DNA of 64,000 bases from positions 6,116 through 70,115 of the forward strand of contig DYGE01000005.1 in NCBI GenBank assembly GCA_020724845.1, in the 5' to 3' direction. The notes beneath the pieces were generated by a model. The model was given only the letters and a program-made list of their open reading frames with translations. It was not told the origin of the DNA and made no database searches. This document shows, piece by piece, positions 2,150 through 63,297 of this stretch. A program made the translations under genes and the position numbers. Position 1 is the stretch's first letter, and each line of letters opens with the position of its first letter. Origin of the DNA: Candidatus Paceibacter sp. Its GTDB lineage: Bacteria > Patescibacteriota > Minisyncoccia > UBA6257 > 02-FULL-45-10c.

Positions 2150-2213
2150 TATATAATTTTATCAAATGGCCACTATATTATATATGCCAAGATGTGAATA
2201 ACTTTCCTTACGG

Positions 2214-4394: not shown

Positions 4395-4440
4395 AACTAA
4401 TATAAATTATATAATTAATATAAACATTATATCCCAGCCG

Positions 4441-4469
4441 AGGAAAAAGAAAAATCCGCCCTTAGGCGG
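4441..4469 (-). terminator. Intrinsic terminator overlapping the ftsH stop codon
   Basis: Hairpin ccgcc-taa-gggcgg followed by a T-run on the minus strand. Confidence 0.55.
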
Positions 4470-6300
4470 ATCCGTTACAGATTAGATCAATCTCTTCGGA
4501 GTTAAGTTCTCCCTTTTCAAAAAGCGCCTCTGCCAACTTCTCAAGAGTTCGCTTATGCTCTTTGAGCAACGTCAGAACCTCGCTTCTGGCCTTGCTGATT
4601 ATATCCCCAACTTCGGCATTAACGTCATCCAGCATCTTTGAAGAGGGGTTGGAGGAAGCGTTCTCGTACATCATCTGGTTTCTCAATCCTTGATTTTCCG
4701 GGACAACTATCAAGTTCTTGCCCATCCCCCACTTAGCAACCATATGCCAGGCAAGCTGACTCGCTTTCCGCAAGTCGTCCGATGCCCCGTTAGTTACCTT
4801 ATTATCGTCTCCGCTAAAGAACAGCAGCTCACCGGTCCGTCCGCCCAGCAATATCTTAATGCGATTCAGGGCCGCCTCTTTGGAAGTCAGCTTTTTATCG
4901 TCATCCGGAAGCTGAAGGGTATACCCAAGGGCCTCGCCATGCGACAGCAAAGTAACCTTGTGCACCGGATCAGAGCTAAGCAGTTTTGCCACCAAGGTAT
5001 GCCCGCTCTCGTGATAAGCGACGATCTTCTTTTCCTCGCCGACAAGGATAGGCCTTTTCCGCTTCGGTCCGGCTATCACCCGCTCAATCGCCTCTTCCAA
5101 TTCCGATTGCTGAACGGTTTCTTTGTCATGCCTGGCCGCGAGCAAAGCGGCCTCATTAATCACATTCGCCAGATCGGCGCCGGTGAAGGTCGGAGTTCTT
5201 TGCGCGATAACTTTCAGATTCGCGCCAGGGTCCAACTTAACATTCGCGGCGTGAACCTGAAGAATTTCCTCTCTGTCTTTAAGAGTCGGAAGCGGAATCG
5301 GAACCTTTCGATCAAACCGCCCGGGTCGAGTCAAGGCCGGATCCAGAACTTCAGGCATGTTAGTCGCGCCAATGAGAATTATCTCGTCGCTGGCATCAAA
5401 ACCGTCCAATTCCACCAGGAGCTGGTTAAGGGTTTGTTCCCGCTCGTCATGTCCGCTGCCAATTCCGGAAAATCTTTTCCGGCCGACTGAATCCAGCTCA
5501 TCAATAAAGATGACTGCTCGGCCGGCCTGTCTGGCCTGATTGAACAAGTCTCTGACTCTGGAAGCGCCGACGCCGACAAACATCTCCACGAATTCCGAGC
5601 CGGAACCCTTGAAAAAAGCGACATTGGCTTCTCCGGCCACCGCTTTGGCAAGCAAAGTTTTACCGTTGCCGGGCGGACCAACCAGAAGGACTCCCTTTGG
5701 AACTTTTCCGCCCAGTTTTCGAAACTTCGCGGGATTTTTCAGAAACTCAACGACTTCCTGCAATTCTTCTTTGGCTTCCTCGCAACCAGCAACGTCTTTG
5801 AATGTCACGTCGCCGGCTTTTTTCTGGTGCCGCTTGGCTTTGGACTGGCCGAAAGAGAACGCGGCCTTGCCGCCTTTAGCCATCGGCCTAATCACTATAA
5901 ACCACCAAGCGCCAAAGAAAAGTGCCAGCCAAAAGAGGTTCCCGATTATTGAAGCTATCCAGCTTCTATCGGGCATTCTCTTATAAGTAACCTTGCTTTT
6001 TTCCGCCAATTTCCTAATCTCCTCAGCCTCTTCCAAAGTCGCCGGCAAAGTATAAACTTTCCGCGACCTAGCCGACGACTGATTGCCGGACTTGGCTTGC
6101 GGATCGCGCAATTCGCCGGTGATTTTCTCTCCAGAATATTCTAAATTATCAACTTTCTTCGCCGAAATATATTCTTTAAATTGCGTAGGACTAATCTCCG
6201 CCGGGGCAGTCAACCCTTTAAAAAGACTGAGAAGGAAGATAAACGCGCCAATCAAGATAAGCATCTTCCAGGGACTGCCTTGCGAAACTCGACCGCTCAT
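4462..6300 (-). CDS. ftsH: ATP-dependent zinc metalloprotease FtsH
   Basis: N-terminal TM segments, AAA Walker [22 protein letters not shown], zinc motif HESGH, length 612 aa. Confidence 0.9.
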
Positions 6301-48808: not shown

Positions 48809-49180
48809 CTAATCTAGGGTGATTTCAAACGCTCTCGCGTTTTGCAGAGATTGTCCGGTTGATTTGATTACGACGCGCGAAGCCCCGCCTCCCAAATCTT
48901 CAAGCGTGCAGGTAGTTTGAAATGAAGAATTATTCTGCATAGAAGGCTCGGGGCAAGCAACACCGTCAGGGCAATCATTGCATATCTGGTCATCACTATA
49001 AAATTTATAAAGCCGCCACTCCAATCCGGAATCAGCCGCATAAATTGCCTTGGTGGAATTTACGATATCGGTTGACTGCCTGATTTGGTAAAGCATCAAA
49101 AGCCCGGCGATGGTTGTTGCGCCAAGTATAGTCCCTGACAAAGCTAAAACTGTTATAAGCATTACTTGCCCACTTCTCAT
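48809..49180 (-). CDS. PilX/ComGG-like minor pilus protein (hydrophobic N-terminal helix, no canonical prepilin cleavage motif)
   Basis: MRSGQVMLITVLALSGTILGATTIAGLLMLYQIRQSTD ... Confidence 0.4.
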   Translation of the reverse strand: MRSGQVMLITVLALSGTILGATTIAGLLMLYQIRQSTDIVNSTKAIYAADSGLEWRLYKFYSDDQICNDCPDGVACPEPSMQNNSSFQTTCTLEDLGGGASRVVIKSTGQSLQNARAFEITLD

Positions 49181-49205: not shown

Positions 49206-50471
49206 TTACGGCCTCACTTCTTCAATTCCTCCGGGAGTGGTAGTTGCCTGGAAATTCTTTTTATTGAAAGTAGCTGTGGCTGTTTTCGGAGCATCCATAT
49301 TCAGGATACATTGGCTGGTTCCCGCGCAAGATCCAGTCCATCCGGCGAATTCTGAATCTCCGCTTGGGCTGGCAGTTAAAGTCACGATTGTCCCGGTTGA
49401 ATAATCTTCTGTACAATCCGATCCGCAATTAATGCCTGTGGGATTGGATGTTACCGTGCCGGTGCCATCTCCAGTTTTCGTAACCTGCAAAGCCGCTGTT
49501 TCCGGATCAAATACTGCCGTGACAGATTTAGGAGAGCTCATATCCAAATCGCAAGATGGATTAGTCCCATAGCCGCTGCAATCCCCGAGCCAACCGCCAA
49601 AAACCGACCCGCTAAATGACGAGGCGGTTAAGGTAATAGTTCCCGTCAATTCCGACTCAAAACAATCAAGTCCGCAATTAATGCCGGGACCGGTTACTAC
49701 ACCATCTCCGATTCCGGTGCGCGCAACATTAAGGGTTACCGGATCAAAATGCGCTTCAACCGATTTAGATTCGTCCATGGTCAGCGTACATGGTTCGGTT
49801 CCCGTGCATGCGCCCGACCAACTATTGCCAAACCAGGATCCCGGAGCCGGGTTGGCAAATAAAGTATAAGTATCGCCGGTAACATAATTTGTTGTAGCGG
49901 ATGGACAAGTTAAACCGCAGTTAATTCCAGTACCGGTTACGGTTCCATTACCGTTTCCGGTTTTAGCTATATTAATTGATGGACCGTTACCAACTAAAGA
50001 TTGAGTAGAATATATTACTCCACCATAACCAACATCGCTACTCACCGGATATTTATTTCCATCTTTAATATTGTTCAAGTAATAAGATACGGACTTTACC
50101 CAATAACCATTATATATGTAACCATTGTTAACTACATATGCACACTTAGATTCTTCTAATGGATTGCCGTTACCCATGACCCTCGTTCGTTTCCCTAATT
50201 GACCAGTTCTTGATAACCATTCATTACAGGATTCTCCAAAATTACCTTCCCCAGCAGTATCAGTCCAAGTTCCTGAAAGATGCGGCGGCACAACACCAAC
50301 CTCTTCACTAAAAGCGCTATCTCCCGCAGAATTTTCTGCCACTATCTTAAAATTCCAAGTTCCTGGGGGATTTAATTGATCGCTATAAAAATACTGATTG
50401 TATGAAAACACAATCCCATGATTTCCAGCCCATTCTCCATTGCGATAAAGCTTATAGTTCGTAATCGCCAA
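49206..50471 (-). CDS. Secreted protein: C-terminal part of an FN3 plus three divergent InlB-B-repeat-like (GINCG...C) modules, ending in EVRP. In frame with 50511..52466 across a single TAG.
   Basis: Three repeats of the form GINCG(L/S)DC...TLTASP..GS.F.GW.G.C.GT..C.L.MD..K(S/T)..A.F. The codons after the upstream TAG, ITVTWEAPADNGGLAITNYKLYR, are a canonical FN3 start. The ORF-track start is TTG. Confidence 0.6.
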   Translation of the reverse strand: MAITNYKLYRNGEWAGNHGIVFSYNQYFYSDQLNPPGTWNFKIVAENSAGDSAFSEEVGVVPPHLSGTWTDTAGEGNFGESCNEWLSRTGQLGKRTRVMGNGNPLEESKCAYVVNNGYIYNGYWVKSVSYYLNNIKDGNKYPVSSDVGYGGVIYSTQSLVGNGPSINIAKTGNGNGTVTGTGINCGLTCPSATTNYVTGDTYTLFANPAPGSWFGNSWSGACTGTEPCTLTMDESKSVEAHFDPVTLNVARTGIGDGVVTGPGINCGLDCFESELTGTITLTASSFSGSVFGGWLGDCSGYGTNPSCDLDMSSPKSVTAVFDPETAALQVTKTGDGTGTVTSNPTGINCGSDCTEDYSTGTIVTLTASPSGDSEFAGWTGSCAGTSQCILNMDAPKTATATFNKKNFQATTTPGGIEEVRP

Positions 50472-50510
50472 TCCGCCATTATCCGCCGGCGCTTCCCAGG
50501 TTACCGTAAT

Positions 50511-52466
50511 CTAGCCCTGATTTGGTCCCGGCACCGCGCTTACATTTCTCGGAACATCTGGCACTGTATTCGGCATCGCGCTCGCTTCATTACTCAAAGG
50601 ACTTTCCCCGCTTGCGGTTACTGCGGAAATTTTATAGTAAAAATTTTTCCTATTGGAATAAGCGGATCCGATATTATCCGCATAGGACGTAGTATTTCCT
50701 ACAGTTGTTAATAATGTTTCCTGCCCCGAAACTTCGCTCCTGTAAATTTTATAGTTCGTAACTTCAGATCCTACGGAGTTCCAATTCAAAATCACTTGAC
50801 CATTTCCAGGAGAAGCGCTAAGTGTCGGGGCAGATGGAATAGCAACTTTTACCTCATTACTAAAACCGCTTTCCTCATCGGGATTAGAACCTCTTACTTT
50901 ATAATAGTATGTGTTCCCGCTTGCTATCGTGCTATCGCTATAACTATACGTACTGCCGCTGATAGTCTCTAAAAGAGTTTCGCCGCTAGTAATAGTATCC
51001 CTATATATTTTATAATCGGCCACGGGCGCGCCTGAGGGCTGCCAATTTAACACCACGACTCCATCCACGAACGAAGAAGAAAGGTTTTTAGGAGAATCTA
51101 ATCCTATCTCTACACAATAAAGCCGATTTGAGTTATCACAACCATTAGAGTCTGAATAATGCGACCACCTACTGTCTTGGAAATTAATACCTCCTTTAAT
51201 GGGCTTATAGCTGAGCCATCCATGATAATAAAATGAATTAGAGGTCCAATTTGAACAATGACCTCGAGAATTGATAGAGGCAATACTGCCATTTGAGTTT
51301 GTGTTAGTAAAAGCTAATCCACTAGAAATTTCATTTCCAATTTCATCCCTATTAATAGGAGAATTTAACGAACCATCAAGCAAATCATTCCAATTTTCAG
51401 CAACAAGTAAGCCATTTGTTAAATTATAAGATTTTTGAGATTCAGAGTTTGGAATTCTTGAAGCGGCCGAAATCGAACCGTCGCTAAGCCATGCCCTGAA
51501 AAAGCCGTTCATTCCAGCGGAATTGGCTCTTTGTTGACATATCGCGTCAGCGCCATCTAAACCGCCAAGATTGCCATTATGTGAAGTGCTCGTAACAAAT
51601 ACCCTAAAAGAATTAGCAGTGCTTATCGCTGCGACTTCGTTGCTAAGGTCGCTTTCACCAACACTATTTACAGCAGACACTTTGTAATAATAATTTTTAT
51701 TTGGGTCTAAATTGATGTCGGTATAGCTTAAATTATCCCCTACAGTCGTTAATAATGTTTCCTGTTCTGAGACTTCGCTTCTGTAAATTTTGTAATTGGT
51801 AATTTCTAACCCGCCATCAAAATCCGGCATATCCCAGCTTAAAAATAATTGTAAGTCAGTTCTATTAATAGATAAGTTTAATGGTGCGTTTGGTTTAACT
51901 GGGGGCTGTTCGAAGCAATACAATGGCAATGTAGCTCCGCAATAATAATTAGCACCATAACTCCAAGCATTGGGATAAGTAGTATTGAAAAATCCTACAT
52001 TTTCCCTTTCCCACCAGCTATTTGAAGTCCAGTTATTACAGAAGCTGGTTGCAAAAGCATTTTTTTCTCCGTTTGCAAGGGTATTTGTTCTAACTCTAGG
52101 TCCATAAGGTGTACCTGAAATTAGGCTACCAAATTCAGTTATATTAATAGGTGAATTAATTGTTCCATCGGTTAGATCTTGCCAATCATTAGCAATAATA
52201 GTCCCATCCAACAACGTATAAGGAATGCTCTGTTTTATGAATCTTTCACTAACAGAAAAGCTGGAATTACTTAACCACGCCTTCCACGAACCTCCTATTT
52301 CGGCCACATCAGCGCGGGATTGACATTTAGCATCGGCCCCAGACAAATCACCTAAATTACCATCGTAAAATGTACTAGTAATAAAAACTCTATTCGCTTC
52401 CTGCGCATGGGCAGTCCCGAACAAGAGTGTCGCCGCAAAAATAATTAAAATATAAAATTTTTTCAT
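50511..52466 (-). CDS. Secreted giant protein with two DGNLG..ADA.CQ..A.....FKAWLSD modules and at least three FN3 domains. It terminates at an in-frame TAG inside the fourth FN3.
   Basis: Signal peptide MKKFYILIIFAATLLFGTAHA. FN3 hallmarks ITNYKIYRSEVS ... YYYKVSAVNSVGES. The C-terminus PDVPRNVSAVPGPNQG* matches A-strand PSAPTLSASPGNGQVILNW of the preceding FN3 repeat. Confidence 0.65.
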   Translation of the reverse strand: MKKFYILIIFAATLLFGTAHAQEANRVFITSTFYDGNLGDLSGADAKCQSRADVAEIGGSWKAWLSNSSFSVSERFIKQSIPYTLLDGTIIANDWQDLTDGTINSPINITEFGSLISGTPYGPRVRTNTLANGEKNAFATSFCNNWTSNSWWERENVGFFNTTYPNAWSYGANYYCGATLPLYCFEQPPVKPNAPLNLSINRTDLQLFLSWDMPDFDGGLEITNYKIYRSEVSEQETLLTTVGDNLSYTDINLDPNKNYYYKVSAVNSVGESDLSNEVAAISTANSFRVFVTSTSHNGNLGGLDGADAICQQRANSAGMNGFFRAWLSDGSISAASRIPNSESQKSYNLTNGLLVAENWNDLLDGSLNSPINRDEIGNEISSGLAFTNTNSNGSIASINSRGHCSNWTSNSFYYHGWLSYKPIKGGINFQDSRWSHYSDSNGCDNSNRLYCVEIGLDSPKNLSSSFVDGVVVLNWQPSGAPVADYKIYRDTITSGETLLETISGSTYSYSDSTIASGNTYYYKVRGSNPDEESGFSNEVKVAIPSAPTLSASPGNGQVILNWNSVGSEVTNYKIYRSEVSGQETLLTTVGNTTSYADNIGSAYSNRKNFYYKISAVTASGESPLSNEASAMPNTVPDVPRNVSAVPGPNQG

Positions 52467-52467
52467 C

Positions 52468-52746
52468 TTATAAATTACATCTTTCCCTTAATTGCACATA
52501 CTCTTCATCATTTTCCAAATCAATGACCTCGGGGCTATGCAGCAAATTCATCAATCGCGGACTGGCATTAGTATCAAAACATTCTTTCCTTCTTTCTATA
52601 ATTTGATTCATTATTCCACCGATAATTCTTCCGGGCCGAATCCCCTCATCGGATTGCCGAAGATTGATAAACCAATAAAGCCAAGCCGTCAATAAAAAAA
52701 TAGTGATTAGCAAAGTCGCGGATATTAACAAAAGCTTTTTGCTCAT
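52468..52746 (-). CDS. Hypothetical small membrane protein
   Basis: 92 aa with N-terminal TM LLLISATLLITIFLLTAWLYWFI. Confidence 0.4.
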   Translation of the reverse strand: MSKKLLLISATLLITIFLLTAWLYWFINLRQSDEGIRPGRIIGGIMNQIIERRKECFDTNASPRLMNLLHSPEVIDLENDEEYVQLRERCNL

Positions 52747-52790
52747 TACTAAAATAATATCATAAAAAATACCCTGTTTACAGGGTATTT

Positions 52791-53849
52791 TTACGGCCTT
52801 ACTTCTCTCGGGGTTCCGGTAGCTGTTCCATTTCCCCCGGATCCTCCGCCAGTTCCATTGCCATTAGTTCCATTTACCGGTACCGGCTCCAGTGATTCGC
52901 TGACCATAATCAATGTTTGCGCCTGGGCTGCCGGCTCTTCGCCTCTCTGCAAGATTACTTTGGCGGTATACAAACCGGGATTTTCATAGGTGCAAAGATT
53001 TTGCGCGGTTCTTGTATCTTCGGCAGTGGTAAATTGCGCGTCTATCGGAGTGGTTATATTGGTCCCAGGGTCTTCTCGGTGGCAATAAAAAGTGTAAGTA
53101 AACTGCATAGGCAGGTCAGGATTAGCCGATGCATCAGCAATTAAATTTACCCCGAAAAGAGGCGCTCCGTTTGAAGACGGTTCCGCGCTCAATGAAACTT
53201 GCAACGGCTCATTCAAATTTTCCCACCACAGCTGCAGTCGCGGCTGTTCTCCTGGCCATGGCTTATCCGGATATGTCGGAGTATTGAAATAATGAGCAAC
53301 ATATATTTGCGTATAGCCGCCGGGCAAAGTATAAATATTAGAGCTTGCCAACCTGCCATCGTTAGTACCCACGGTCTTCTTGAAATAAGGCCAAACTTGG
53401 AGCTCAACACTATCATTAGTAAATAGATGGAACCGATACTGCCCCGGTTTAAGATTAACTAATCCCCTGATTTCAGATCTTACATATACCCCGCTGTCAC
53501 ATGTATACAATATACTTCCTTCTATAGCAGACCAGCGGCTGCGAGCGCAACGCTCTCTTCCAAGCACATAACTTGAAGCAAACATTGTTCCTTGCAAATT
53601 AAAAGTGTTTTCAAAATTAACAAAATGAGAACCAACCTGGCCGGATGGCAAAGATAAATTATGCTGTTGAGTCAAATAAGAATCCAAGGATCCTCCACGC
53701 CATCCATTAAATTCTGCCTTCCAATCATAAAAACATAGACGAAATACATCGCTTGGATAATTATGGCATTGCGAGTGAGTAGCGTTTGCAACATACGCCC
53801 CGCCTATTGCAATAAAAAATATAATTAAAATCAAAAACTTATTTTTCAT
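52791..53849 (-). CDS. Secreted protein with PA14-like and PKD-like domains and a Gly/Asn/Thr-rich linker ending in EVRP
   Basis: Signal peptide. GQYRFHLFTNDSVELQVW (PA14-like). FTYTFYCHREDPG...YENPGLYTAKVIL (PKD-like). C-terminal ...NGTATGTPREVRP. Confidence 0.5.
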   Translation of the reverse strand: MKNKFLILIIFFIAIGGAYVANATHSQCHNYPSDVFRLCFYDWKAEFNGWRGGSLDSYLTQQHNLSLPSGQVGSHFVNFENTFNLQGTMFASSYVLGRERCARSRWSAIEGSILYTCDSGVYVRSEIRGLVNLKPGQYRFHLFTNDSVELQVWPYFKKTVGTNDGRLASSNIYTLPGGYTQIYVAHYFNTPTYPDKPWPGEQPRLQLWWENLNEPLQVSLSAEPSSNGAPLFGVNLIADASANPDLPMQFTYTFYCHREDPGTNITTPIDAQFTTAEDTRTAQNLCTYENPGLYTAKVILQRGEEPAAQAQTLIMVSESLEPVPVNGTNGNGTGGGSGGNGTATGTPREVRP

Positions 53850-54042: not shown

Positions 54043-54240
54043 CTATTGAGTTTGCACTAATAAAGAAAGCACCAGGATAGTCCAAAGGAGCGCAAAAACA
54101 GTTATCGCCCAGCCTTCTTTCCTGAATTGGGGTTCAGCAATCAGCGCCAAGCCGTAAACTATCCCCGCAGGGCCGCTTAAAATTGAGATAACAATGCCGA
54201 CCCAAAACCACTTTTGCCAAAATTTAAATTTATTTTCCAT
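54043..54240 (-). CDS. Small two-TM membrane protein
   Basis: MENKFKFWQKWFWVGIVISILSGPAGIVYGLALIAEPQ... The 5' end and promoter region are duplicated at 54405-54580. Confidence 0.4.
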   Translation of the reverse strand: MENKFKFWQKWFWVGIVISILSGPAGIVYGLALIAEPQFRKEGWAITVFALLWTILVLSLLVQTQ

Positions 54241-54286
54241 ATTTATATTATAACAAATTATCCATCTTATACTATAATTAGTATAG

Positions 54287-54484
54287 ATGAAGACGCGCAA
54301 TCAAAAAGGTTTTTCTTTGGTGGAAATGCTGGTGATAGTAATGACTTTCGGATTGATTTCCGGGATTCTGATTGTTTACAGCCGGACCGCTGATTACGCT
54401 CACAACTACGCCGACCCAAAACCACTTTTTCCAGAATTTAAATTTATCCATAGAGTATTCGCGAATATGGCAAATTTATTTTAA
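54287..54484 (+). pseudogene. Truncated type IV pilin paralog (remnant of a segmental duplication)
   Basis: MKTRNQKG|FSLVEMLVIVMTFGLISGILIVYSRT parallels the downstream pilin MNSKG|FTIVEVLVVISVTALLTGVSIFYNRT for about 36 aa, then diverges and stops. Its 3' part is antisense to a second copy of the MDKFKFWKKWFWVG N-terminus. Confidence 0.5.
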
Positions 54485-54579: not shown

Positions 54580-55128
54580 ATGAATAGCAAAGGATTTACG
54601 ATTGTGGAAGTGTTAGTAGTCATCAGCGTAACCGCTCTTTTGACCGGAGTATCTATTTTTTACAACCGCACCAGCCAAAAACAGATAACCCTTTTTAAGG
54701 AACAGGCCAAAATAATCAATACCGTCTTGCGCGCTAAATCTTTGGCGCTTACAACCTACACCAAGGAAGGCGCGCCTTGCGCTTACGGTATTCATTTTAA
54801 TAAAGATGCTAGAGAAATGAGAATTTTCCGCGATCTGGACGCTAGCGGAACAACTGACGATTGTGCAACCGCGGATAATCAATATGAAGCAACGCCTCCG
54901 CCAAACGCGGAAGATCTTGATCCTCCTGCCGTTGAGATATTAAGCGGCGAAATCAGCTTTATAGAACCTTTTAACCTGACCGATATCGTTTTCATACCGC
55001 CGCAGCCGGAAGTCGTTATTATCCCAGATCCGTCCCCGGCCACCGACGTTGCCATAGAAATAGGAACCGCTGACGGCGTTTCGAAATTAATAAAAATAAA
55101 CAGTTTCGGCCAAGTGACCGCGCAATAA
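54580..55128 (+). CDS. Type IV pilin / pseudopilin
   Basis: Class III signal MNSKG|FTIVEVLVVISV with Glu+5. Preceded by the promoter-like repeat tataacaaatta..cttatactataatta also found upstream of the truncated copy. Confidence 0.8.
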   Translation: MNSKGFTIVEVLVVISVTALLTGVSIFYNRTSQKQITLFKEQAKIINTVLRAKSLALTTYTKEGAPCAYGIHFNKDAREMRIFRDLDASGTTDDCATADNQYEATPPPNAEDLDPPAVEILSGEISFIEPFNLTDIVFIPPQPEVVIIPDPSPATDVAIEIGTADGVSKLIKINSFGQVTAQ

Positions 55129-55129
55129 T

Positions 55130-55672
55130 ATGGATAACAAAGGGCAAGTCTTAGTTGAAGCAATAGTTGCCATTACCATAGCAACCGTCGGGTTATTGGG
55201 TATTTTCGGTTTAATGAACCGATCCCTAAGCTTAAACCGCCAGACCGGAGACCAGTATGTCGCCGCCAACCTGGCCATGGAAGGAGTGGAAGTGATAAAA
55301 AATATGATTGACAACAATATCATCCAAGGGCTTCCTTGGAATAACGGCATTTCTGACGGGATATATGAAGTTATGTATAATGACGCGGGGCTAAGCAGAA
55401 AAATACTAGGCGCGGATCCGGTTGCGGACTGCAATTCCGCCTTCATATTACAAGATGAAAATACCGACTACCTGGACTTTGACCCAATAACCGGAATCTA
55501 TGGATACGGCTTTTCAGAGCAAACTAGGTATAAGCGGGGTGTCTGCGTAAGAAATCTCCTCGGCGGGAACGAAATACAGGTTAACGCGATAATAGTTTGG
55601 ACCACCAGAGGCCAGGCAGTCTTTGATATCAATCTGGAAGATCATTTCTATAATTGGAGACCGGAACTATAA
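55130..55672 (+). CDS. Minor pilin (PilV/GspH-like)
   Basis: MDNKG|QVLVEAIVAITIATVGLLGIF, a prepilin-type N-terminus with Glu+5. Confidence 0.7.
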   Translation: MDNKGQVLVEAIVAITIATVGLLGIFGLMNRSLSLNRQTGDQYVAANLAMEGVEVIKNMIDNNIIQGLPWNNGISDGIYEVMYNDAGLSRKILGADPVADCNSAFILQDENTDYLDFDPITGIYGYGFSEQTRYKRGVCVRNLLGGNEIQVNAIIVWTTRGQAVFDINLEDHFYNWRPEL

Positions 55673-55703
55673 AACGTCTAGCGTTTAGAATTGAAATAGG
55701 ATT

Positions 55704-56294
55704 ATGAAAAATATTTTTAATATATCAAATTTGCGAAGCGAGCTGAGCGCTGAAAAAGGTTTCACTGTCGTGGAGCTAATCGTCGCCTTTGGGCTATTTG
55801 CCATCGTACTTTCCATAGTCACCGGAACTTTTATAAAATCCCTGCGCACCCAGCAGCAAATCACGGCTTTCATCGCCGCCAACAGCAATGCCAGCCTGAC
55901 CATCGAGCAGATAGCAAGAGAGATAAGAACCGGACAAGATTTCTGCGTAGACCCGAACGCCGTCTGCGAGTTGGATAACGGAGACATATATAATGACATA
56001 GTCTTTACCAATGCCAGAGGACAGCAAGTAAAATACAGTCTTGCCGAACGGACTATCGGCTCCAATGTCATTCAATCTATCATGCGCAGCGTGGATGGCG
56101 GCCAAGCTATTCCGGTAACAGCCGATAACGTCAATATCCAAAGATTGAAATTCTACCTTAGCGGCCAGGAAACCGCGGACGGCCAAAATCCGAAAATAAC
56201 TATCGTGCTTGGCGCCGGATCTCCCAGTATTTCTTTCGCGGACCTGCTGATAAACTTGCAGACTACTATCAGCTCGCGTATATTGCAGACCTAA
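55704..56294 (+). CDS. Minor pilin with a long leader (PilW-like)
   Basis: ...LSAEKG|FTVVELIVAFGLFAIVLSIV. Confidence 0.7.
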   Translation: MKNIFNISNLRSELSAEKGFTVVELIVAFGLFAIVLSIVTGTFIKSLRTQQQITAFIAANSNASLTIEQIAREIRTGQDFCVDPNAVCELDNGDIYNDIVFTNARGQQVKYSLAERTIGSNVIQSIMRSVDGGQAIPVTADNVNIQRLKFYLSGQETADGQNPKITIVLGAGSPSISFADLLINLQTTISSRILQT

Positions 56295-57157
56295 TACAAA
56301 TTGAAGAAGCTAAAATAGGCGCGAAGCAGATTTTCACCGAAGAAAAAGAGCGTTAGCGTCCCAGCTATTAGAAATGGCCCGAACGGCACTTGGCTCTTCA
56401 TATTCTTTTTTTGGAAGAGAATCAGCGCCAAACTCACAATCGCGCCTATAAAAGTTCCAAATATGAAAAGGAATAAGGTATCCGGCCAGCCGAATAAAAC
56501 CCCAAGCGCCGCCATTAATTTCAAGTCACCCATGCCCATTCCCCTTCCTTTAGTAATAAGAATTATCAAACCGACGATCGACGCGCCGATTAAGGCGCCG
56601 AATAGATGATTCAGAATCACGCTTTCGCGCAAACCAAACAGTGCCGCGTAACTTCCTATGAAAGATCCTTGGAATTCCCCGAATTGCGCGTAAAAAGTGG
56701 TTGACGCAATCCTAAAAAAACCAAGAAGGGCCAAGCTAATATTCAATTCGTCCGGGATCAGGTACAAGCGATAATCAATCGTCCCGATTAGAATAAAGGT
56801 CAAAAAAACGGCAATCCAGACGGCACTTTCTATAAGGGTCTGGGGTAGAGGGTAGAGGGTATAGTTAGAAAAATATAATGGGAGTAAAAATACAAAACCG
56901 CTCGCCAGCTCCACCAACGGATACTGCCAGGAAATTTTCTTACCGCAGGTCATGCATTTTCCGCGCTGAATCAAAAAACTCAAAACCGGCACCAACTCAA
57001 ACCAGCTTAAAGTGGCGCCGCAAGACGGGCAATGCGATCTGCCGAGCAAATTTCTAAAATCAAAAACGTTCTTTTCTGGGTCATAGCGAAGGGAAACAAC
57101 ATTGAGGAAACTCCCAACTATAAGACCGAAAAGAAAAAGAAAAAAGTAGGTCATAGC
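56291..57157 (-). CDS. pilD: Prepilin peptidase (A24 family)
   Basis: Zinc-binding CPSCG...CMTCG, multiple TM segments, catalytic Asp region DYRLYLIPDEL. Confidence 0.85.
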   Translation of the reverse strand, partial: AMTYFFLFLFGLIVGSFLNVVSLRYDPEKNVFDFRNLLGRSHCPSCGATLSWFELVPVLSFLIQRGKCMTCGKKISWQYPLVELASGFVFLLPLYFSNYTLYPLPQTLIESAVWIAVFLTFILIGTIDYRLYLIPDELNISLALLGFFRIASTTFYAQFGEFQGSFIGSYAALFGLRESVILNHLFGALIGASIVGLIILITKGRGMGMGDLKLMAALGVLFGWPDTLFLFIFGTFIGAIVSLALILFQKKNMKSQVPFGPFLIAGTLTLFFFGENLLRAYFSFFNLY

Positions 57158-57243
57158 CAATACCACTATAATATCAATTATAAAACGCAAACGCCACGAA
57201 AGTTCGCGGCGTTTGTACTTCTATAAGAAGCGCTGCTGACGGC

Positions 57244-57720
57244 TTAGAATTGTACGCAATAAACCGGATTCGGGGTATCACTGCAATCAATACCGAATAC
57301 AGTACCATCCACGTCATCATCTAGAGAACGGTCGCCTACGTTTTCCAAGACGGCGCCGATAATATAGCTCTGGCCATCACCAGACACTCCGTAGCGATAA
57401 TCATTGGTTCCCAATGGATCAGTTGGAACCTTGGTAATTCCCAATCCGCTAGTGCCGGTAAGCGCAGTTGATAGCGCTGACCAAGTCTTTGCTCCGGCAG
57501 TGCCGGCATCGCAGTCCGCGGCACCCGGGTATCGTCCGCAACGTGTATAATAAATCTCCACGCCCTGCTGAACACTCTTGATGTCAGCCAACCTTCGCGC
57601 GTCCCTGCCTCGGGAGCGAAAACCAGCCAAACCAACCAAGAAGACAGAGGACAGTAAGCCGACGATGGAAATAACCACCAAAATTTCAATCAAAGTAAAG
57701 CCCTTTTTAGATGCTGTCAT
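57244..57720 (-). CDS. pilA: Major type IV pilin
   Basis: MTASKKG|FTLIEILVVISIVGLLSSV. Upstream is the tandem palindromic AT element TGATTAATTAAT x2. Confidence 0.85.
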   Translation of the reverse strand: MTASKKGFTLIEILVVISIVGLLSSVFLVGLAGFRSRGRDARRLADIKSVQQGVEIYYTRCGRYPGAADCDAGTAGAKTWSALSTALTGTSGLGITKVPTDPLGTNDYRYGVSGDGQSYIIGAVLENVGDRSLDDDVDGTVFGIDCSDTPNPVYCVQF

Positions 57721-57789
57721 TGATTAATTAATTGATTAATTAATTTTTTCGACTTTTTTTAAGTATAACATATTCATATAGCGGAATAG

Positions 57790-58998
57790 TTAGAATGCCC
57801 GGGTCAAGTTGAATATCGGCAGCAAAATGGCAACGAAAAGAACTCCAACTGCTATACCGATGAATACCATTAAGGCGGGCTGGATCAGCTCAACTAGCCG
57901 TCCGATTAAATCATCAACTTCTCTGGAGTAAAACGAAGAGACTCTGGACAGGAGAGCTTCCAGCTTGCCGGTAGATTCTCCTACCGACACCATTTGGCTC
58001 ACCAACGGAGGGAAAAACTCATCGTGCTCCTGAAGCGCTTGAGACATTAATTCGCCGCCCCTTACCGATTCGGCAATCTTATGCAGAATATCGCTGTAAA
58101 TAGGACTCCCAATAGTGCGTCCGGAAATTTCTATAGCTTGCGCCACCGGCAAACCGCCCCGAATCAGCACGGCCACAGATTCCGCGAAGCGCGCTACATA
58201 CAATTTTTTGTAAAGATTCCCAAGAATAGGCACTCGCAGCCGCACTTCATCCAGTATGATTTTCCCCTCTTCCGTTCTCAAATAATCGTAGATGACAAAT
58301 ACGATCACTCCCAAGGTTATCGCTATTGCCAGCCACCAGTTAGTAAGAAAATCCCCGCTTCCAAGCAAAATTCTGGTTATCAAAGGAAGCTCCACTCCGG
58401 ATTCCTGAAAAACCGGAGCCAGCTGCGGGAAAACAAAGCCAATTAACACTCCGCCAACCACGCCAAAAAGAATGATGACAATTATCGGATAGATTAAGGC
58501 ATTCCTTATACGCGACACTAAACCCGCCTCCTTTTCCAAATATTCAGCTAAAAAGCCGATAACTTCTTCCAAACGCCCGGTTATCTCCGCGGAGCTAACC
58601 ATGCTCACATAAAATTCAGAGAAGGCTCCCGGATGTTTTTTCAACGCTTGAGAAAGCGACAGGCCGGCGTCTATATCCGAAGAAACTTCCGAAATAATTT
58701 CCTTCAGAATCGGATTTTTAGTTTGCTTGTAAAGATTGCGCAGGGCATCGCCTAAAGAAATTTTGGCTTCCAAAAAAGTGGCGAATTGCCTAGTGAACAC
58801 CATCACGTCCGCCGACTTCACTCGCTCAAAGATATTAACCAACCGCTTATACCAAGGGAGAGCTTCGGCGGAAACTAGGCTGAGCAGAACCAGATCGTGG
58901 CCGGTTAAAACATTAATGGCCGCTTCTCGGTTAGCCGCCTCCACAAAACCAGTCTGAAGCTCCCCTTGTTTAGTTCTGGCATTATAACGAAATTTCAT
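57790..58998 (-). CDS. pilC: Type IV pilus assembly platform protein (GspF family)
   Basis: Two T2SSF repeats, 3 TM, 402 aa. Confidence 0.85.
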   Translation of the reverse strand: MKFRYNARTKQGELQTGFVEAANREAAINVLTGHDLVLLSLVSAEALPWYKRLVNIFERVKSADVMVFTRQFATFLEAKISLGDALRNLYKQTKNPILKEIISEVSSDIDAGLSLSQALKKHPGAFSEFYVSMVSSAEITGRLEEVIGFLAEYLEKEAGLVSRIRNALIYPIIVIILFGVVGGVLIGFVFPQLAPVFQESGVELPLITRILLGSGDFLTNWWLAIAITLGVIVFVIYDYLRTEEGKIILDEVRLRVPILGNLYKKLYVARFAESVAVLIRGGLPVAQAIEISGRTIGSPIYSDILHKIAESVRGGELMSQALQEHDEFFPPLVSQMVSVGESTGKLEALLSRVSSFYSREVDDLIGRLVELIQPALMVFIGIAVGVLFVAILLPIFNLTRAF

Positions 58999-59006
58999 CC
59001 TTTCTT

Positions 59007-60098
59007 TTATTTAATCTGCCCGCTTTCCAGCAGAACCCGCAATTCCGCCGGGTTCAAAGAATAAAGCTCGGCGCTTTCCAAAGAAATTTCCCTGTTGAGA
59101 ACCAGTTTAGCCAGCGAGCGATTAAGAGAAATCATCCCGTCTTTAACGCTGGTTTCAATGACTAAGTCTATTTGATGAGTTTTCCTCTCGCGAATCAGGT
59201 TTCTGATGGCCGGATTCACAAGCATAACCTCTACCGCCGGGATGCGGCCGCCGTCGATTCTCGGAACCAGCCGCTCTGAAATTATCCCGACCAAAGTGGA
59301 AGAAAGCTGGGTAATAATTTGGGACTGCTGTTCTGGCGGAAAGCTGTCTATTATTCTATCAATAGTTTGCGCGGCGGAATTGGTGTGGAGAGTGGAAAAA
59401 ACCAAGTGCCCGGTTTCAGCGGCAGTCATAGCGGTGGAAATTGAACCTTGATCGCGCATTTCTCCGATCATGACCACGTCCGGATCCTGCCTAAGCAGAG
59501 TGCGCAGGCCGTCATGAAAACTCAAAGCATCTGCCCCAACCTCTCTTTGAGATACTATGCAGCGATCTTGTGTGAATAGATATTCAATCGGATCCTCAAT
59601 GGTAATAATGTGATCAGTTCGCTGATGATTAATTTGATCTAGAATAGCCGCCACCGTTGTTGATTTTCCATGGCCGGCAGGACCCACCACCAAAACAAAA
59701 CCTTGAGAGAGACGGGAAAAATTTTGAATAATCGGCGGCAAACCCAACTCTTCAAGAGACTGCACTTTGCCTGGGATGAGGCGAAGAGCGGCTGCCATAT
59801 CTCCACGCTGAAAAAATACGTTGACTCGGAACCTTGCCTTATCTTCATAGGAGTACGCAAGGTCAATCTGCTTTTCCTGCAATAATTTTTCTTTTTGTTC
59901 AGGAGTCAGCAAGGCGCTCACTAATCCTTCCGCTGATTCGGAAGTTAAAACTTCCTCCTGCTGTAGCGGCGCCAAAACCCCATCTAATCTTAGAGTGGGC
60001 TTTCGGCCAACCGATAAATGGAGATCAGAAGCGTTTTGCTTTACCGCCGTTGATAAATACGATTCCAGTAATTGTTTGTATTTGTTATTAGTAGGCAT
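59007..60098 (-). CDS. pilT: Twitching motility ATPase PilT
   Basis: Walker A VLVVGPAGHGKSTT, Asp box, His box; 363 aa. Confidence 0.9.
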   Translation of the reverse strand: MPTNNKYKQLLESYLSTAVKQNASDLHLSVGRKPTLRLDGVLAPLQQEEVLTSESAEGLVSALLTPEQKEKLLQEKQIDLAYSYEDKARFRVNVFFQRGDMAAALRLIPGKVQSLEELGLPPIIQNFSRLSQGFVLVVGPAGHGKSTTVAAILDQINHQRTDHIITIEDPIEYLFTQDRCIVSQREVGADALSFHDGLRTLLRQDPDVVMIGEMRDQGSISTAMTAAETGHLVFSTLHTNSAAQTIDRIIDSFPPEQQSQIITQLSSTLVGIISERLVPRIDGGRIPAVEVMLVNPAIRNLIRERKTHQIDLVIETSVKDGMISLNRSLAKLVLNREISLESAELYSLNPAELRVLLESGQIK

Positions 60099-60134
60099 AC
60101 ATTTATTATATTCTTTAGCGGGAGATACTAAAAG

Positions 60135-61865
60135 TTATAGCTCCTCCGTTTCTCTTAAAACCTCTTCCAGGCTCACCAAGCCATCCAAGGCCTTCAGAAT
60201 GCCATCTTGCCGCATTGCTATCATACCCTGCCTTCGCGCCTCTTCCAAAAGCTTAGCTTCGCTGAATCCGGAATTTATTACCTCCTGCAATTGAGGGGTC
60301 ATGATTAAGGCCTCAAAAATCGCAACCCTGCCGACAGTGCCTTTCTCATTGCATTCTTTGCAGCCGGCCGCTCTGTAAATTTTGACATCTTTTATTTTTT
60401 TTCTGGTTTCCGCCGGCATCTTTTCCAATTCCCTGTTAAGAATTTCCCCCAACTTTCCGGACGGGACTTCGGCTTTCTTGCAATTCTGGCAAAGCCGGCC
60501 CAACAACCGCTGAGCCATCATCAAATTTAAAGAAGACGGGAGCAGAAAGCTGTCAACTTGCATATCAATCAAGCGAGGGATGACTCCAAGCGCGTTATTA
60601 GTGTGGAGAGTAGAAAGCACAATATGCCCGGTAAGGGCGGCATTAATGGTAAGTTGGGCGGTTTCTTTATCCCGCACCTCTCCCACCATAATAACATCCG
60701 GGTCTTGCCTCAAAATCTGCCTCAATCCGGAAGCAAAAGTATAGCCGATCTCCGGCTTCACTTGCGATTGGTTGACGCCTTCAAGGTAATATTCAACCGG
60801 ATCCTCCAAGCTGACTATATTCACATCCGGAGTATTTAAAATCTGGAAAATAGCGTAAAGCGTGGTGCTCTTTCCGGAACCGGTCGGACCAGTAACTAGA
60901 ATTAAGCCGTACGGCTTATCAATCGCCTCTCTGACTATTTCCGCGTTCCTGCCAATCAGCCCCAGCCCCTCTAAATCCTTCAGGCCGACAGTCGGGTCAA
61001 GAATTCGGAGAGCCACCTTTTCCCCATTGGGCGTCGGGAAGGTCGCAACACGAAAATCAATATCTCTTCCGAAAATAATGGAGCGAAATCGGCCGTCCTG
61101 CGGCACCCTAGTCTCATCCAATTTCAAGCTGGCCAGAACTTTAATTCTTGAAATAAATGGCTGATGAATTTCCGGCGGCATCTTGCTGACCTCTATAAGA
61201 TCGCCGTTAACTCGGAACCGAACCCGGAAGCTGGAGCGCTGCGGCTCAAGGTGTATGTCTGAAGCTCCCACGTTAATCGCCTCTTTCAAAGTAGAGGCTA
61301 CAAGCTTGATAACCGGAGCCTCCTCGGCTGTCTTTGCTCCTTCTTCTATTCCGACAATCTTCCCGCCGGCCGCGGTAAACTTTGAAGACTTCAGATTCAG
61401 CGACTGCAGAGCCTCCTCCACTTCATCTTTATAGGGAGAATACTTCCGCATCACCAAGTCAAAATCTCCCGGAGTAATAAGATAAACTCCGAGGTTAATC
61501 TTTTGCTGCTTAGCCACGAAACGCAAAGCTTCTTGGGCTTGGGCATTGGTCGGTTCCAGCATCCCGACCACTAGCATATCCTTGGTTTTGGACAGCGGCA
61601 CAACTTTATAAGTTCGGGCGACTTCCTCGCTGATGCTGGAAAGCAATTCCTTAGTTATGGTATCTAAATTAATTTTCCGAAAAGGAATACTTAAAATCTT
61701 GCTTTTTACTTTTGCCACCTCCTCTTCATCTATCAAATTGCGATCATAAATAAGCTGTTCGGCAGTTCTTCCAATAGCCGCAGCTTCTCCCTGTATTTTA
61801 TTAGCCGCGTCCTGCGCCAACAGGCCGGCAGCAACCAAATTTTCTAAAAGTTTTTTATCGTCCAC
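60135..61865 (-). CDS. pilB: Type IV pilus assembly ATPase PilB (GspE family)
   Basis: N-terminal GSPII_E_N domain, Walker A ILVTGPTGSGKSTT, tetracysteine CQNC...CKEC. Confidence 0.9.
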   Translation of the reverse strand: MDDKKLLENLVAAGLLAQDAANKIQGEAAAIGRTAEQLIYDRNLIDEEEVAKVKSKILSIPFRKINLDTITKELLSSISEEVARTYKVVPLSKTKDMLVVGMLEPTNAQAQEALRFVAKQQKINLGVYLITPGDFDLVMRKYSPYKDEVEEALQSLNLKSSKFTAAGGKIVGIEEGAKTAEEAPVIKLVASTLKEAINVGASDIHLEPQRSSFRVRFRVNGDLIEVSKMPPEIHQPFISRIKVLASLKLDETRVPQDGRFRSIIFGRDIDFRVATFPTPNGEKVALRILDPTVGLKDLEGLGLIGRNAEIVREAIDKPYGLILVTGPTGSGKSTTLYAIFQILNTPDVNIVSLEDPVEYYLEGVNQSQVKPEIGYTFASGLRQILRQDPDVIMVGEVRDKETAQLTINAALTGHIVLSTLHTNNALGVIPRLIDMQVDSFLLPSSLNLMMAQRLLGRLCQNCKKAEVPSGKLGEILNRELEKMPAETRKKIKDVKIYRAAGCKECNEKGTVGRVAIFEALIMTPQLQEVINSGFSEAKLLEEARRQGMIAMRQDGILKALDGLVSLEEVLRETEEL

Positions 61866-61868
61866 AAC

Positions 61869-62159
61869 CTAAAAACTAATAAATGGATTCGCCCTCCCCG
61901 CTTCTCCGACCGATGGCCTGTCTATGTAACGGCGCAGCGACTTGAATGAATCGCTGTTAACTACCCCCGCAGGATCGAAGCGAATGCCGGAGAGCTCCGA
62001 AGTAGAGCGCACAGCCGGAGGAGCTATAACCTCTATGACCGGAGTCGGGGCAAAAAACAAAAAGTAGATGCCCCCGCCGATAACAATCAGGGCCGCCAGG
62101 ATCCCTGCCAATATTTTCCAATTTATTTGCCTTTCTTCTCCGCCTAGAACTATTGCCAT
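61869..62159 (-). CDS. Hypothetical single-TM protein in the pilus operon (possible PilP-like component)
   Basis: 96 aa with TM ILAGILAALIVIGGGIYFLFF, lying between pilO and pilB. Confidence 0.4.
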   Translation of the reverse strand: MAIVLGGEERQINWKILAGILAALIVIGGGIYFLFFAPTPVIEVIAPPAVRSTSELSGIRFDPAGVVNSDSFKSLRRYIDRPSVGEAGRANPFISF

Positions 62160-62162
62160 AAA

Positions 62163-62732
62163 TTATTGGGGTTGATAATAAGTATCGACTGTTAAGGTGT
62201 AGAGATATATGTCCTGATCCGGCCGGCCGGCCAAGCCGATAGTCAGAGATCGAACATCCATGATCCTGATATTTGTTTCCAGCAGCTGCAAAAACCTCTT
62301 GATTCCAGAATAGCTTCCAGCCAAATCCAGTTGTAGCCTCAAAGTACCCAGGCCGCGAGCCGAAGATAATCTGGAAACTGGCGGCTTGATAGGAAGATTA
62401 TTTATGCCTACCGACTGCACTAGAACACCGCTGGAGCCGGCCATAGCATTTATCTGAGCAATAACTGAAGAAACGGATTCCTCGTTCGGCAGAGCAAGGG
62501 ACAAAGACTCCCCCAACCGGGAAACGCTCTGGTACTGCGCGATCAAGTTTTGCACTTGCGTAATTGCCGTACGCTCTTCTTCCAGGAAAAGAGTTTTGGA
62601 CTCCAATTCTCCACGCAACTGATTAACCCTCTCATATTCCGGACTAATTAGAGTCGCGTAAATAACCAAAGAGGTTATCAACAAAGCCGCTGAAAGAAGT
62701 ATGCTAAGCGCTCTTTTGGCTGATGGTTGCAT
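62163..62732 (-). CDS. pilO: Pilus assembly protein PilO
   Basis: N-terminal TM then a coiled coil, 189 aa, in the position after pilN. Confidence 0.65.
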   Translation of the reverse strand: MQPSAKRALSILLSAALLITSLVIYATLISPEYERVNQLRGELESKTLFLEEERTAITQVQNLIAQYQSVSRLGESLSLALPNEESVSSVIAQINAMAGSSGVLVQSVGINNLPIKPPVSRLSSARGLGTLRLQLDLAGSYSGIKRFLQLLETNIRIMDVRSLTIGLAGRPDQDIYLYTLTVDTYYQPQ

Positions 62733-62751
62733 TGATAAATATTGACTTAAA

Positions 62752-63297
62752 TTATTTTAATAGGTCAGCGCGCAAATTCAGAACTACCCTGAATTCAACA
62801 AGGTCTCCGCTTGTTTCCGACCTGCTTAAGCTATAACGATTCACCTCTTCAGATTGGTCGAAAATTTCCAGCTGCTCGGATAAAGCCGTAAGATCCCCGG
62901 CAAACCCAGTCAGCTCTAGCTCGCTCCCGGAAACTCCCAAGCTGGCGTTAGTGTAATAAACCTGCTGATGAGTTGTCTGCTCAAGCAGCGGAAAAAGATT
63001 GGAAACAAGCGCGTGATCGTTTAAGAGACCCTCTAAATTCACCAACTGCGAATAAAATTTTACGAATTGCTCCTGATCCTCCCTGGGCACGCTGGCGGCC
63101 AGTTGGTCAATCTCGTTTTCTACTTCCCTTAACTGCGAGGCAAGATATGGGCCGTAGCCGAAAGCCAAGCCCGCGTAAACCAAAACCGCGAATAAGAATA
63201 TGGCGGATACAATAGAAAGAAGGCGCCAGGGCCAGCCGACAGGTATCTTTTCCGGCTCAAATTGCTCTAAAGGATTCTGATTATATTCTTGCGCCAT
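62752..63297 (-). CDS. pilN: Pilus assembly protein PilN
   Basis: Short cytoplasmic N-terminus, TM, periplasmic coiled coil; 181 aa. Confidence 0.65.
   Translation of the reverse strand: MAQEYNQNPLEQFEPEKIPVGWPWRLLSIVSAIFLFAVLVYAGLAFGYGPYLASQLREVENEIDQLAASVPREDQEQFVKFYSQLVNLEGLLNDHALVSNLFPLLEQTTHQQVYYTNASLGVSGSELELTGFAGDLTALSEQLEIFDQSEEVNRYSLSRSETSGDLVEFRVVLNLRADLLK

Follow-up and report, generated by a model that had tools for sequence, protein, structure and literature searches.

A conserved C-terminal tail on secreted proteins encoded with the minor pilins of Paceibacteria, a possible tag for the type IV pilus tip

Introduction

In type IV pili, the last ~10 residues of the adhesin PilC/PilY1 add a β-strand in trans to a pilin of the PilK family, and modelling indicates the same for MshQ (Ellison et al., PNAS 2026, PMC13533445). 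In that work, which combined experiments in Neisseria and Acinetobacter with modelling of several other systems, the C-terminal peptide of PilC/PilY1 was necessary for both piliation and retention of the adhesin at the tip, whereas in GspK, ComGG and CpaL the corresponding strand belongs to the pilin chain itself; docking of PilC/PilY1 at the tip is also treated in PMC13190605, which cites Treuner-Lange et al. Here, we describe a short C-terminal tail that ends two secreted proteins encoded beside the type IV pilus genes in a 64,000-nucleotide stretch of DNA from Candidatus Paceibacter sp. (assembly GCA_020724845.1, contig DYGE01000005.1), the whole of which is called the window below. Tails of the same kind were found on unrelated secreted proteins of related genomes, all of which are referred to as cargo, and we lean towards reading the tail as a lineage-wide tag that attaches Sec-exported cargo to the tip of the type IV pilus.

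Two further systems offer points of comparison. PilX1 and PilX2 of the Saccharibacteria TM7x carry C-terminal β-jelly-roll or β-propeller domains, and type IV pili of Patescibacteria have been implicated in host binding (PMC12206443). The Kil Tad pilus of Myxococcus uses interchangeable minor-pilin ‘Tips’ (PMC12075869).

Two proteins of the window share an EVRP ending

The open reading frame (ORF) at 49206-50471 (-) ends in ...QATTTPGGIEEVRP, i.e. ...TTPGGIEEVRP, and that at 52791-53849 (-) in ...GNGTATGTPREVRP, i.e. ...TGTPREVRP, each directly followed by its stop codon. A sequence-only reading of the window had remarked that the EVRP tetrapeptide ends these two proteins and no other; indeed, among the 325 stop-to-stop ORFs of the window (≥60 amino acids) a VRP or EVRP end was confined to the two, and the flexible G/T/P-rich linkers that the same reading placed ahead of both tails are present in the sequence. 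The last 15 nucleotides of the two genes, GAAGTRAGGCCGTAA, are identical at 14 of 15 positions, the sole difference being the wobble base of Val. This GAAGTRAGGCCGTAA pattern had two exact matches in the window, both at these gene ends, and three matches when up to two mismatches were allowed, versus 0.20 expected by chance.

The tail is conserved as a peptide on unrelated proteins

The tail was scanned for in LigA-anchored loci (1.3 Mb) and then in 80 metagenome loci fetched with an alignment of the PilX-like protein, whose gene lies between the cargo genes and ligA in the window. On contigs of related Paceibacteria (ultra-small bacteria of the Patescibacteria/candidate phyla radiation, CPR), 36 distinct tails were found that conform to [PG]-G-h-[KR]-E-[VI]-x-P(-0-2 aa)-COOH, and the consensus drawn from them is [P/G]-G-[ILV]-[KR(E)]-E-[VI]-x-P. 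Position −3 is always Glu and position 0 always Pro (36/36), position −2 is V or I in 31, position −4 is K, R or E in 32 and position −5 is I, L or V in 29 of the 36 tails. Translation stops right after the Pro in 23 tails, while one more residue follows in 11 and two in 2. Three tails came from one Harrisonbacteria locus (...LKPGIKEVKP, ...LKPGFYEIRP and ...PVQLREVKP), and further examples are ...FVPGVKEVKP, ...GGKLKEIRP(GQ), ...LFIPGQLHEINP, ...TPGSLEEVRP, ...VRKEVKPQ, ...NKIREILPR, ...SLKEVLPR, ...SYKETNPGK and ...LFLKKFKELLPF.

The codons of the tail vary synonymously between copies (GTG/GTA/GTT/ATT/ATC; AGG/AAG/CGT; CCG/CCA/CCT/CCC) and all three stop codons occur, indicating that selection acts on the peptide, not on the DNA. 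An explanation at the DNA level, such as a shared Shine-Dalgarno sequence or a repeat, was rejected for the same reason. The tagged proteins are unrelated to each other: four are S8 subtilases, one is a Kelch propeller, some have Flg_new_2, InlB-B, FN3 or Kre9_KNH Ig domains, and several had no Pfam match. The tail is often preceded by a low-complexity P-, G- or T-rich linker, and its position after linkers on unrelated architectures indicates that it is a portable module, not the end of one domain family. All tagged proteins have an N-terminal signal peptide or signal anchor, and none has a pilin leader.

The closest relative found was locus L163, whose PilX-like protein is 74% identical to that of the window and which encodes three tagged proteins, namely a Kelch protein, an ortholog of cargo 2 of the window and another InlB-B protein. 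Residues 1-1086 of cargo 2 align end to end with this ortholog, an intact protein of 1146 amino acids (2171-5611), at an overall identity of 44%; the tail is kept (...TTTPGGIEEVRPE; ...FQATTTPGGIEEVRPE) and 23 of 27 residues are identical in the tail region. The shared EVRP ending is real, not a coincidence: a chance match had been thought likely if only two proteins carried the motif or if orthologs lacked it, and both the ortholog and ~35 further proteins are tagged. Locus L002 encodes three cargos other than those of L163, and such differences between cargo sets point to rapid cargo turnover between close relatives. Literature searches for a C-terminal sorting signal of Patescibacteria and for the tail peptide strings gave nothing relevant, and the conserved tag has apparently not been described so far.

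Other C-terminal ends were also seen in these loci. In L017 (LigA 72% identical), both cargos (2209-3828 and 4266-5732) end in a variant tail, ...SLFLKK[FL][KR]ELLPF, and ORFs upstream of other PilX-like genes end in ...GNYxW[HY]GGR (L134, L150 and L160) or ...GIRYWFG... (L094 and L098). The ELLPF-, GNYxW[HY]GGR- and GIRYWFG-type ends may be further tail classes.

Tagged genes cluster with the minor pilins and the PilX-like gene

Counting only ORFs of ≥200 amino acids, the tail was carried by 28 of the 179 that share the strand of a PilX-like gene and lie ≤8 kb upstream of it, compared with 14 of the 1003 in the remainder of the fetched DNA (Fisher p = 1.3e-14). Of these 14, no fewer than 8 were pilus-locus cargo falling outside the positional rule. 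The tagged genes are tightly associated with the cluster of minor-pilin and PilX-like genes, and almost all of them lie between the two. Directly ahead of the PilX-like gene stood a tagged gene in 19 distinct loci and the third minor pilin in 23 others. In L002, the stop codon of the cargo gene overlaps the start codon of the PilX-like gene (ATGA; CCATGAAG), and in some loci such an overlap couples translation of the cargo to that of the PilX-like gene. Only pilins and cargo are encoded between pilD and ligA in the window, L002, L027 and L076. Family scans of the window agreed with the earlier statement that pilD, the minor-pilin genes and the PilX-like gene adjoin the two cargo genes (Table 1).

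The PilX-like protein, a candidate receptor

The leader of the PilX-like protein, MRSG/QVMLITVLALSG... (MRSG/QVMLITVL...), has Ile and no Glu at position +5, and Gly at −1 is conserved among its homologs. A missing Glu at +5 is a hallmark of the apical PilK/PilX/GspK class (PMC13533445). In relatives, the gene comes after those of GspH-, PilV- and GspJ/ComGF-like pilins, which themselves follow pilD. An AlphaFold2 model built from a 110-sequence alignment (pLDDT 90.7) has the lollipop fold of pilins, with an N-terminal helix (residues 3-62) and a three-stranded antiparallel sheet whose last strand is the conserved ..RAFEITLD end. An exhaustive search gave 1377 representatives of the family at 50% clustering; the family is unannotated, with no Pfam domains and only the name ‘hypothetical’ in every source, and its sequence profile had no match in the PDB.

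Some homologs contain in-chain inserts before the last two strands, which are Laminin_G_3 (P0258 and P0345), a right-handed β-helix (P0331) or a type I dockerin (P0274), and P0378 has a C-terminal extension of ~365 residues. The lectin, β-helix and dockerin domains within the chain of these homologs indicate that the PilX-like protein is a cargo-presenting subunit, and the dockerin in the tip pilin P0274 suggests that cargo is recruited in a cohesin-type manner.

Two minor observations concern the same protein. In a subset of homologs (P0143, P0148, P0160, P0195, P0197, P0202 and others), ..RAFELxF is followed by T/S/E-R-[EDQ]-[LVI]-P and then by poly-Pro, an extension similar to the cargo tail (R-E-[VIL]-x-P) yet located on the PilX-like protein itself. 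NCBIfam gave just one match for the window protein (48812-49180, -), a weak one (E = 0.004) to the N-terminal part of ‘tapirin’. Tapirins bind cellulose and have their genes in the pilus locus of Caldicellulosiruptor.

Comparison with described docking and sorting systems

The locus resembles those of PilC/PilY1 and MshQ in that the cargo is a large, non-pilin, Sec-exported protein encoded with minor pilins, that the functional element is the extreme C-terminus of ~6-12 residues, and that the partner, here proposed from the genes, would be an apical pilin without Glu at +5 that holds an adhesin or effector at the tip. It differs from PilC/PilY1 in the diverse architectures of its cargo, including subtilases, in the sharing of one PilX-like gene by two or three cargo genes, in gene order (J-[cargo]-K versus K-Y1), in the well-defined motif h-[KR]-E-[VI]-x-P and in the host lineage, Patescibacteria; the Kelch propeller of one relative's cargo belongs to a different family from the PilY1/PilC propeller. 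By analogy, the reading that suits the tag best is a variant of docking in trans by a C-terminal peptide, as known from PilC/PilY1.

As for other systems, GspK, ComGG, CpaL/TadG and ComZ, K-class pilins whose own chain provides the terminal strand or bears additional domains (PMC13533445), and TM7x PilX1/PilX2 are apical pilins that present cargo, as do the PilX-like homologs with inserted domains; unlike all of these, the window's PilX-like protein is minimal (123 amino acids) and the cargos are separate polypeptides with a common tail. In TcpF-TcpB and CofJ-CofB, a short unstructured terminal peptide of a secreted protein of the pilus operon binds a tip minor pilin, as is proposed here; there, however, the peptide lies at the N-terminus, a homotrimeric type IVb minor pilin acts as receptor and TcpF is released. 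The ‘Tips’ of the Myxococcus Kil Tad pilus likewise equip one pilus machine with alternative tip modules of variable domains, as we propose for Paceibacteria, but there the variable domains are in alternative minor-pilin complexes instead of separate tagged proteins.

In the LPXTG/sortase, PEP-CTERM/exosortase and PGF-CTERM/archaeosortase systems, too, secreted surface proteins of diverse kinds share a short conserved motif at the C-terminal end. In the present case the protein ends at the motif Pro or at most 2 residues later, with no transmembrane (TM) helix or basic tail, and NCBIfam, run on 10 tails, gave no match to a sorting-signal model; the sequence-only reading was right to set the tail apart from all three signals. 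Members of the sortase, exosortase and archaeosortase families were absent from the scanned genes of the cluster, which are a part of the window, and from the Pfam tables of L161 and L163.

Proposed docking at the pilus tip and alternative explanations

Physical docking, the partner protein and the geometry of the strand are what we infer by analogy. After export by way of the N-terminal signal peptide, the free, linker-tethered last ~6-12 residues of the cargo would dock on the apical minor-pilin complex, the most probable contact being an added β-strand on the small sheet of the PilX/PilK-like subunit encoded just downstream, or else at the J/K interface. Augmentation of the sheet or binding in a groove would be likelier than completion of an incomplete PilK, and piliation may not depend on the cargo. 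The pilus would then bear the cargo domains at its tip: PKD/InlB-B/FN3 adhesin-like proteins in the window, and also S8 subtilases and a Kelch propeller in relatives, with several cargo genes per locus providing interchangeable tips. The invariant Glu predicts a salt bridge to an invariant basic residue of the receptor, a candidate being Arg116 of the ..RAF.. strand. The suggestion in the sequence-only reading that the tail serves for docking onto pilus or minor-pilin components fits the conservation of the motif, its near-confinement, within the fetched DNA, to the minor-pilin/PilX-like cluster, the ATGA coupling and the parallel with PilC/PilY1/MshQ.

Several results weigh against docking of this kind. 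The loci were fetched through LigA and the PilX-like protein, which biases the sample to pilus loci. The assignment of the receptor is weak by annotation, as Pfam PilX_N stayed below threshold (E = 0.19 for 3 of 6 family members and 9.5e-4 for the homolog P0281) and Foldseek of the model against the PDB found no significant pilin match, the best being ComZ (E = 0.57). No PilY1/PilC β-propeller was detected by Pfam in the cargos of the window and 10 cargos of relatives. Although its AlphaFold2 model has only three strands, the PilX-like partner appears to have a terminal strand of its own, in contrast to PilK in PilY1 systems; its length and C-terminal strand (..RAFExxL) are the same with or without tagged cargo genes, and tail variants showed no clear covariation with its C-terminus. 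Since the PilX-like protein is alike in both kinds of loci, there is no support for a strict model whereby an incomplete PilK has to be completed by the cargo.

The association with pilus genes would be explained equally well if the tail were a signal for pilus-dependent export or release, by which the cargo docks transiently at the tip and is then pushed out as in a type II secretion system (T2SS) or as for TcpF and CofJ. Many of the cargos belong to the S8 proteases, enzymes that are as a rule released, and the terminal strand that the PilX-like protein appears to have of its own would allow a weaker, reversible contact; moreover, in type IVb pili, secretion of TcpF and binding of CofJ rely on short flexible peptides that attach to the tip minor pilin (PMC9565799, PMC10120004 and PMC6048534). 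The TcpF and CofJ signals are, however, N-terminal. The adhesin-like cargos (InlB-B, FN3, PKD and Kelch) are better suited to display than to release. Furthermore, we know of no outer membrane or secretin in Patescibacteria, and a Sec-exported protein should then need no piston, so that we regard a release signal as unlikely. Alternatively, a protease or ligase could act at this short and conserved end of the protein, with its invariant Glu and Pro, and a gene for signal peptidase I (S26) does lie among the cargo genes of L163 (6428-7021). The proposal, put beside docking in the sequence-only reading, that the tail is recognised by a dedicated protease or transpeptidase nevertheless found no support, because no peptidase, sortase or other enzyme gene consistently co-occurs with the cargo genes, as the stretch from pilD to ligA in the window, L002, L027 and L076 illustrates; in addition, 13 of the 36 tails extend 1-2 residues beyond the Pro, and the motif has neither a following TM helix or basic tail nor a matching NCBIfam sorting-signal model. 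A recognition motif of this kind, or one for a C-terminal modifying enzyme, is improbable to a still greater degree.

C-terminal Pro-stop contexts slow termination, for example in TnaC and in SsrA tagging at Pro-stop. An ending in ...[KR]-P-stop might thus act in translation by tuning, through slowed termination, the coupling to the downstream PilX-like gene, whose start is overlapped or abutted by the cargo stop in some loci. We give this very little credence, since the Pro is not the last residue in 13 of the 36 tails, since cargo genes that do not adjoin the PilX-like gene are also tagged, including cargo 1 of the window, which is followed by a hairpin with a T-run, and since a termination effect does not account for the invariant Glu at −3 or the hydrophobic residue at −2. 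As for coincidence or a functionless relic of a local duplication, the window alone, with only two copies of nearly identical DNA, could suggest a recent copy; 36 distinct tails from many contigs and samples, on unrelated proteins and with synonymous codon variation, together with an ortholog tail above background identity and the enrichment by location (p ~1e-14), make its probability negligible.

Docking of tagged cargo at the pilus tip therefore remains the reading that we favour. A bolder form of it, in which a universal tag of ~6 residues, h-[KR]-E-[VI]-x-P, loads interchangeable enzymes and adhesins onto one pilus tip of Paceibacteria (CPR) via the PilX/PilK-like subunit, including subtilisin-type proteases, lectin-like repeat proteins and Kelch propellers, is put forward tentatively, as somewhat less likely than not. 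To our knowledge, all cultivated Patescibacteria live attached to host cells. If tip docking is true, tip assembly by β-strand addition would reach a deep-branching, monoderm-like lineage and would include cargo that has no PilY1 propeller, pilus tips would bear not only adhesins but also proteases, and cargo would be swapped rapidly between close relatives. The tag would then give a sequence handle for metagenome mining, by which the host-contact ‘tip effectorome’ of an uncultivated lineage could be listed, as well as a minimal tag for engineering pilus display.

Cargo genes and pilus locus of the window

The features of the window are collected in Table 1.

Table 1. Positions of the tails, cargo genes and pilus genes in the window
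Feature	Position	Strand	Remarks
Cargo 1 C-terminal tail, P-R-E-V-R-P	52794..52811	(-)	Stop codon 52791-52793
Cargo 2 C-terminal tail, I-E-E-V-R-P	49209..49226	(-)	Stop codon 49206-49208
Cargo gene 1, 352-amino-acid secreted protein	52791..53849	(-)	Signal peptide MKNKFLILIIFFIAIGGAYVANA, PKD-like C-terminal region, G/T/N-rich linker, tail
Cargo gene 2, 1086 codons	49206..52466	(-)	Signal peptide MKKFYILIIFAATLLFGTAHA, then DUF1554/endostatin-like, FN3 and InlB-B domains
In-frame TAG in cargo gene 2	50511-50513	(-)	Inside FN3 domain, PGPNQG-stop-ITVTWEAPADNGGLAITNYKLYRNGEW
PilX/PilK/GspK-like apical minor pilin, 123 amino acids	48809..49180	(-)	Proposed receptor for tails
Small single-TM ORF between cargo genes, 92 amino acids	52468..52746	(-)	No family match
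Hairpin and T-run just 3' of cargo 1 stop	52763..52788	(-)	ATACCCTG-TAAA-CAGGGTAT-TTTTTT, read from sequence
Minor pilin 1, G/FTIVE	54580..55128	(+)	N_methyl; weak best match GspH
Minor pilin 2, G/QVLVE	55130..55672	(+)	Weak best match PilV (GspI class); C-terminus ...LEDHFYNWRPEL
Minor pilin 3, G/FTVVE	55704..56294	(+)	Weak best matches XpsI, ComGF, GspJ; ends ...LQTTISSRILQT
Prepilin peptidase PilD	56291..57190	(-)	A24_N_bact, Peptidase_A24
Rest of type IV pilus operon	57244..63297	(-)	Family scan
Major pilin	57244-57720	(-)	
PilC	57790-58998	(-)	
PilT	59007-60098	(-)	
PilB	60135-61865	(-)	
PilO	62163-62732	(-)	
PilN	62752-63297	(-)	

The signal peptides MKNKFLILIIFFIAIGGAYVANA and MKKFYILIIFAATLLFGTAHA of the two cargo genes are Sec signal peptides without the G/FxxxE pilin leader. 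Cargo 1 is intact and tagged. It is an orphan, as a homolog search returned the protein itself and one partial match to the PKD-like region, with no match in Pfam or NCBIfam, and its single-sequence AlphaFold2 model was unusable (pLDDT 36.5). The hairpin and T-run after its stop codon look like a terminator in the sequence, and they were absent from the listing of a consensus terminator scan.

The 421-amino-acid ORF that carries the tail of cargo 2 had been taken for an InlB-B-repeat protein in its own right. It has no N-terminus and is the distal part of a gene interrupted by TAG: the ORF at 50511-52466, with the signal peptide, DUF1554 and FN3, is in the same frame. The TAG divides the gene into a signal-peptide half of 651 amino acids and a tail-bearing half of 421/434 amino acids, the former exported without the tag and the latter tagged without a signal peptide; the C-terminal part comprises three InlB-B repeats, a TTTPGG linker and IEEVRP before the final stop. 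The JGI and Logan assemblies, which match the window DNA at 100% identity, have the same TAG, and the L163 ortholog has Lys at this position. Recoding of TAG was rejected, because TAG terminates 9 of the 34 long ORFs of the window and because of the Lys in the ortholog. Cargo 2 is probably a recently inactivated gene (a fresh pseudogene) unless the stop is read through, and the TAG could possibly serve in readthrough or as a phase-like switch. Homologs of the 421-amino-acid fragment were generic InlB-B-repeat proteins from many phyla, none of them tagged, and are uninformative about orthologs.

Small single-TM ORFs without a family match precede each cargo gene of the window, encoding 92 amino acids at 52468-52746 (-) and 85 at 54043-54300 (-), and comparable ORFs of 149 and 105 amino acids, again without a family match, are ahead of cargo genes in L163.

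LigA, which adjoins the locus, had its best matches in metagenome-assembled genomes (MAGs) of Patescibacteria (Harrisonbacteria, Wolfebacteria and ‘Paceibacterota’) at ≤75% identity, indicating that the window comes from an unrepresented Paceibacteria lineage; its genome is absent from the GTDB representative genomes. The type IV pilus operon of the window is a full one, and a four-gene set of H/I/J/K-like minor pilins occurs together with PilT, PilM, PilN and PilO. Seen from the minor pilins, the order is two cargo genes, the PilX-like gene and then ligA, and in 17 LigA-anchored loci of related genomes the standard arrangement runs from pilD through three minor pilins and the PilX-like gene to ligA. 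The three minor-pilin genes of the window (54580-56294, +) are inverted with respect to pilD and the PilX-like gene, all of which point in the same direction in L004, L027, L076 and others; no convincing inverted repeats were found flanking the inverted block. The family of the PilV-like minor pilin has a C-terminus, ...LEDHF[FY]NWR(P), that is strongly conserved in many loci.

A few kb past gatA, a trio of DUF2238, Peptidase_C39_2 and NLPC_P60 genes is present in the window contig (~39.8-41.4 kb; L161 15838-17446) as well as in L163. In L166 (JAGWYA010000003.1), the PilX-like-ligA pair stands away from any pilus operon, with UbiA, Lnt and an aromatic lyase upstream, indicating that the link between the PilX-like gene and ligA is more conserved than that between the PilX-like gene and the pilus operon.

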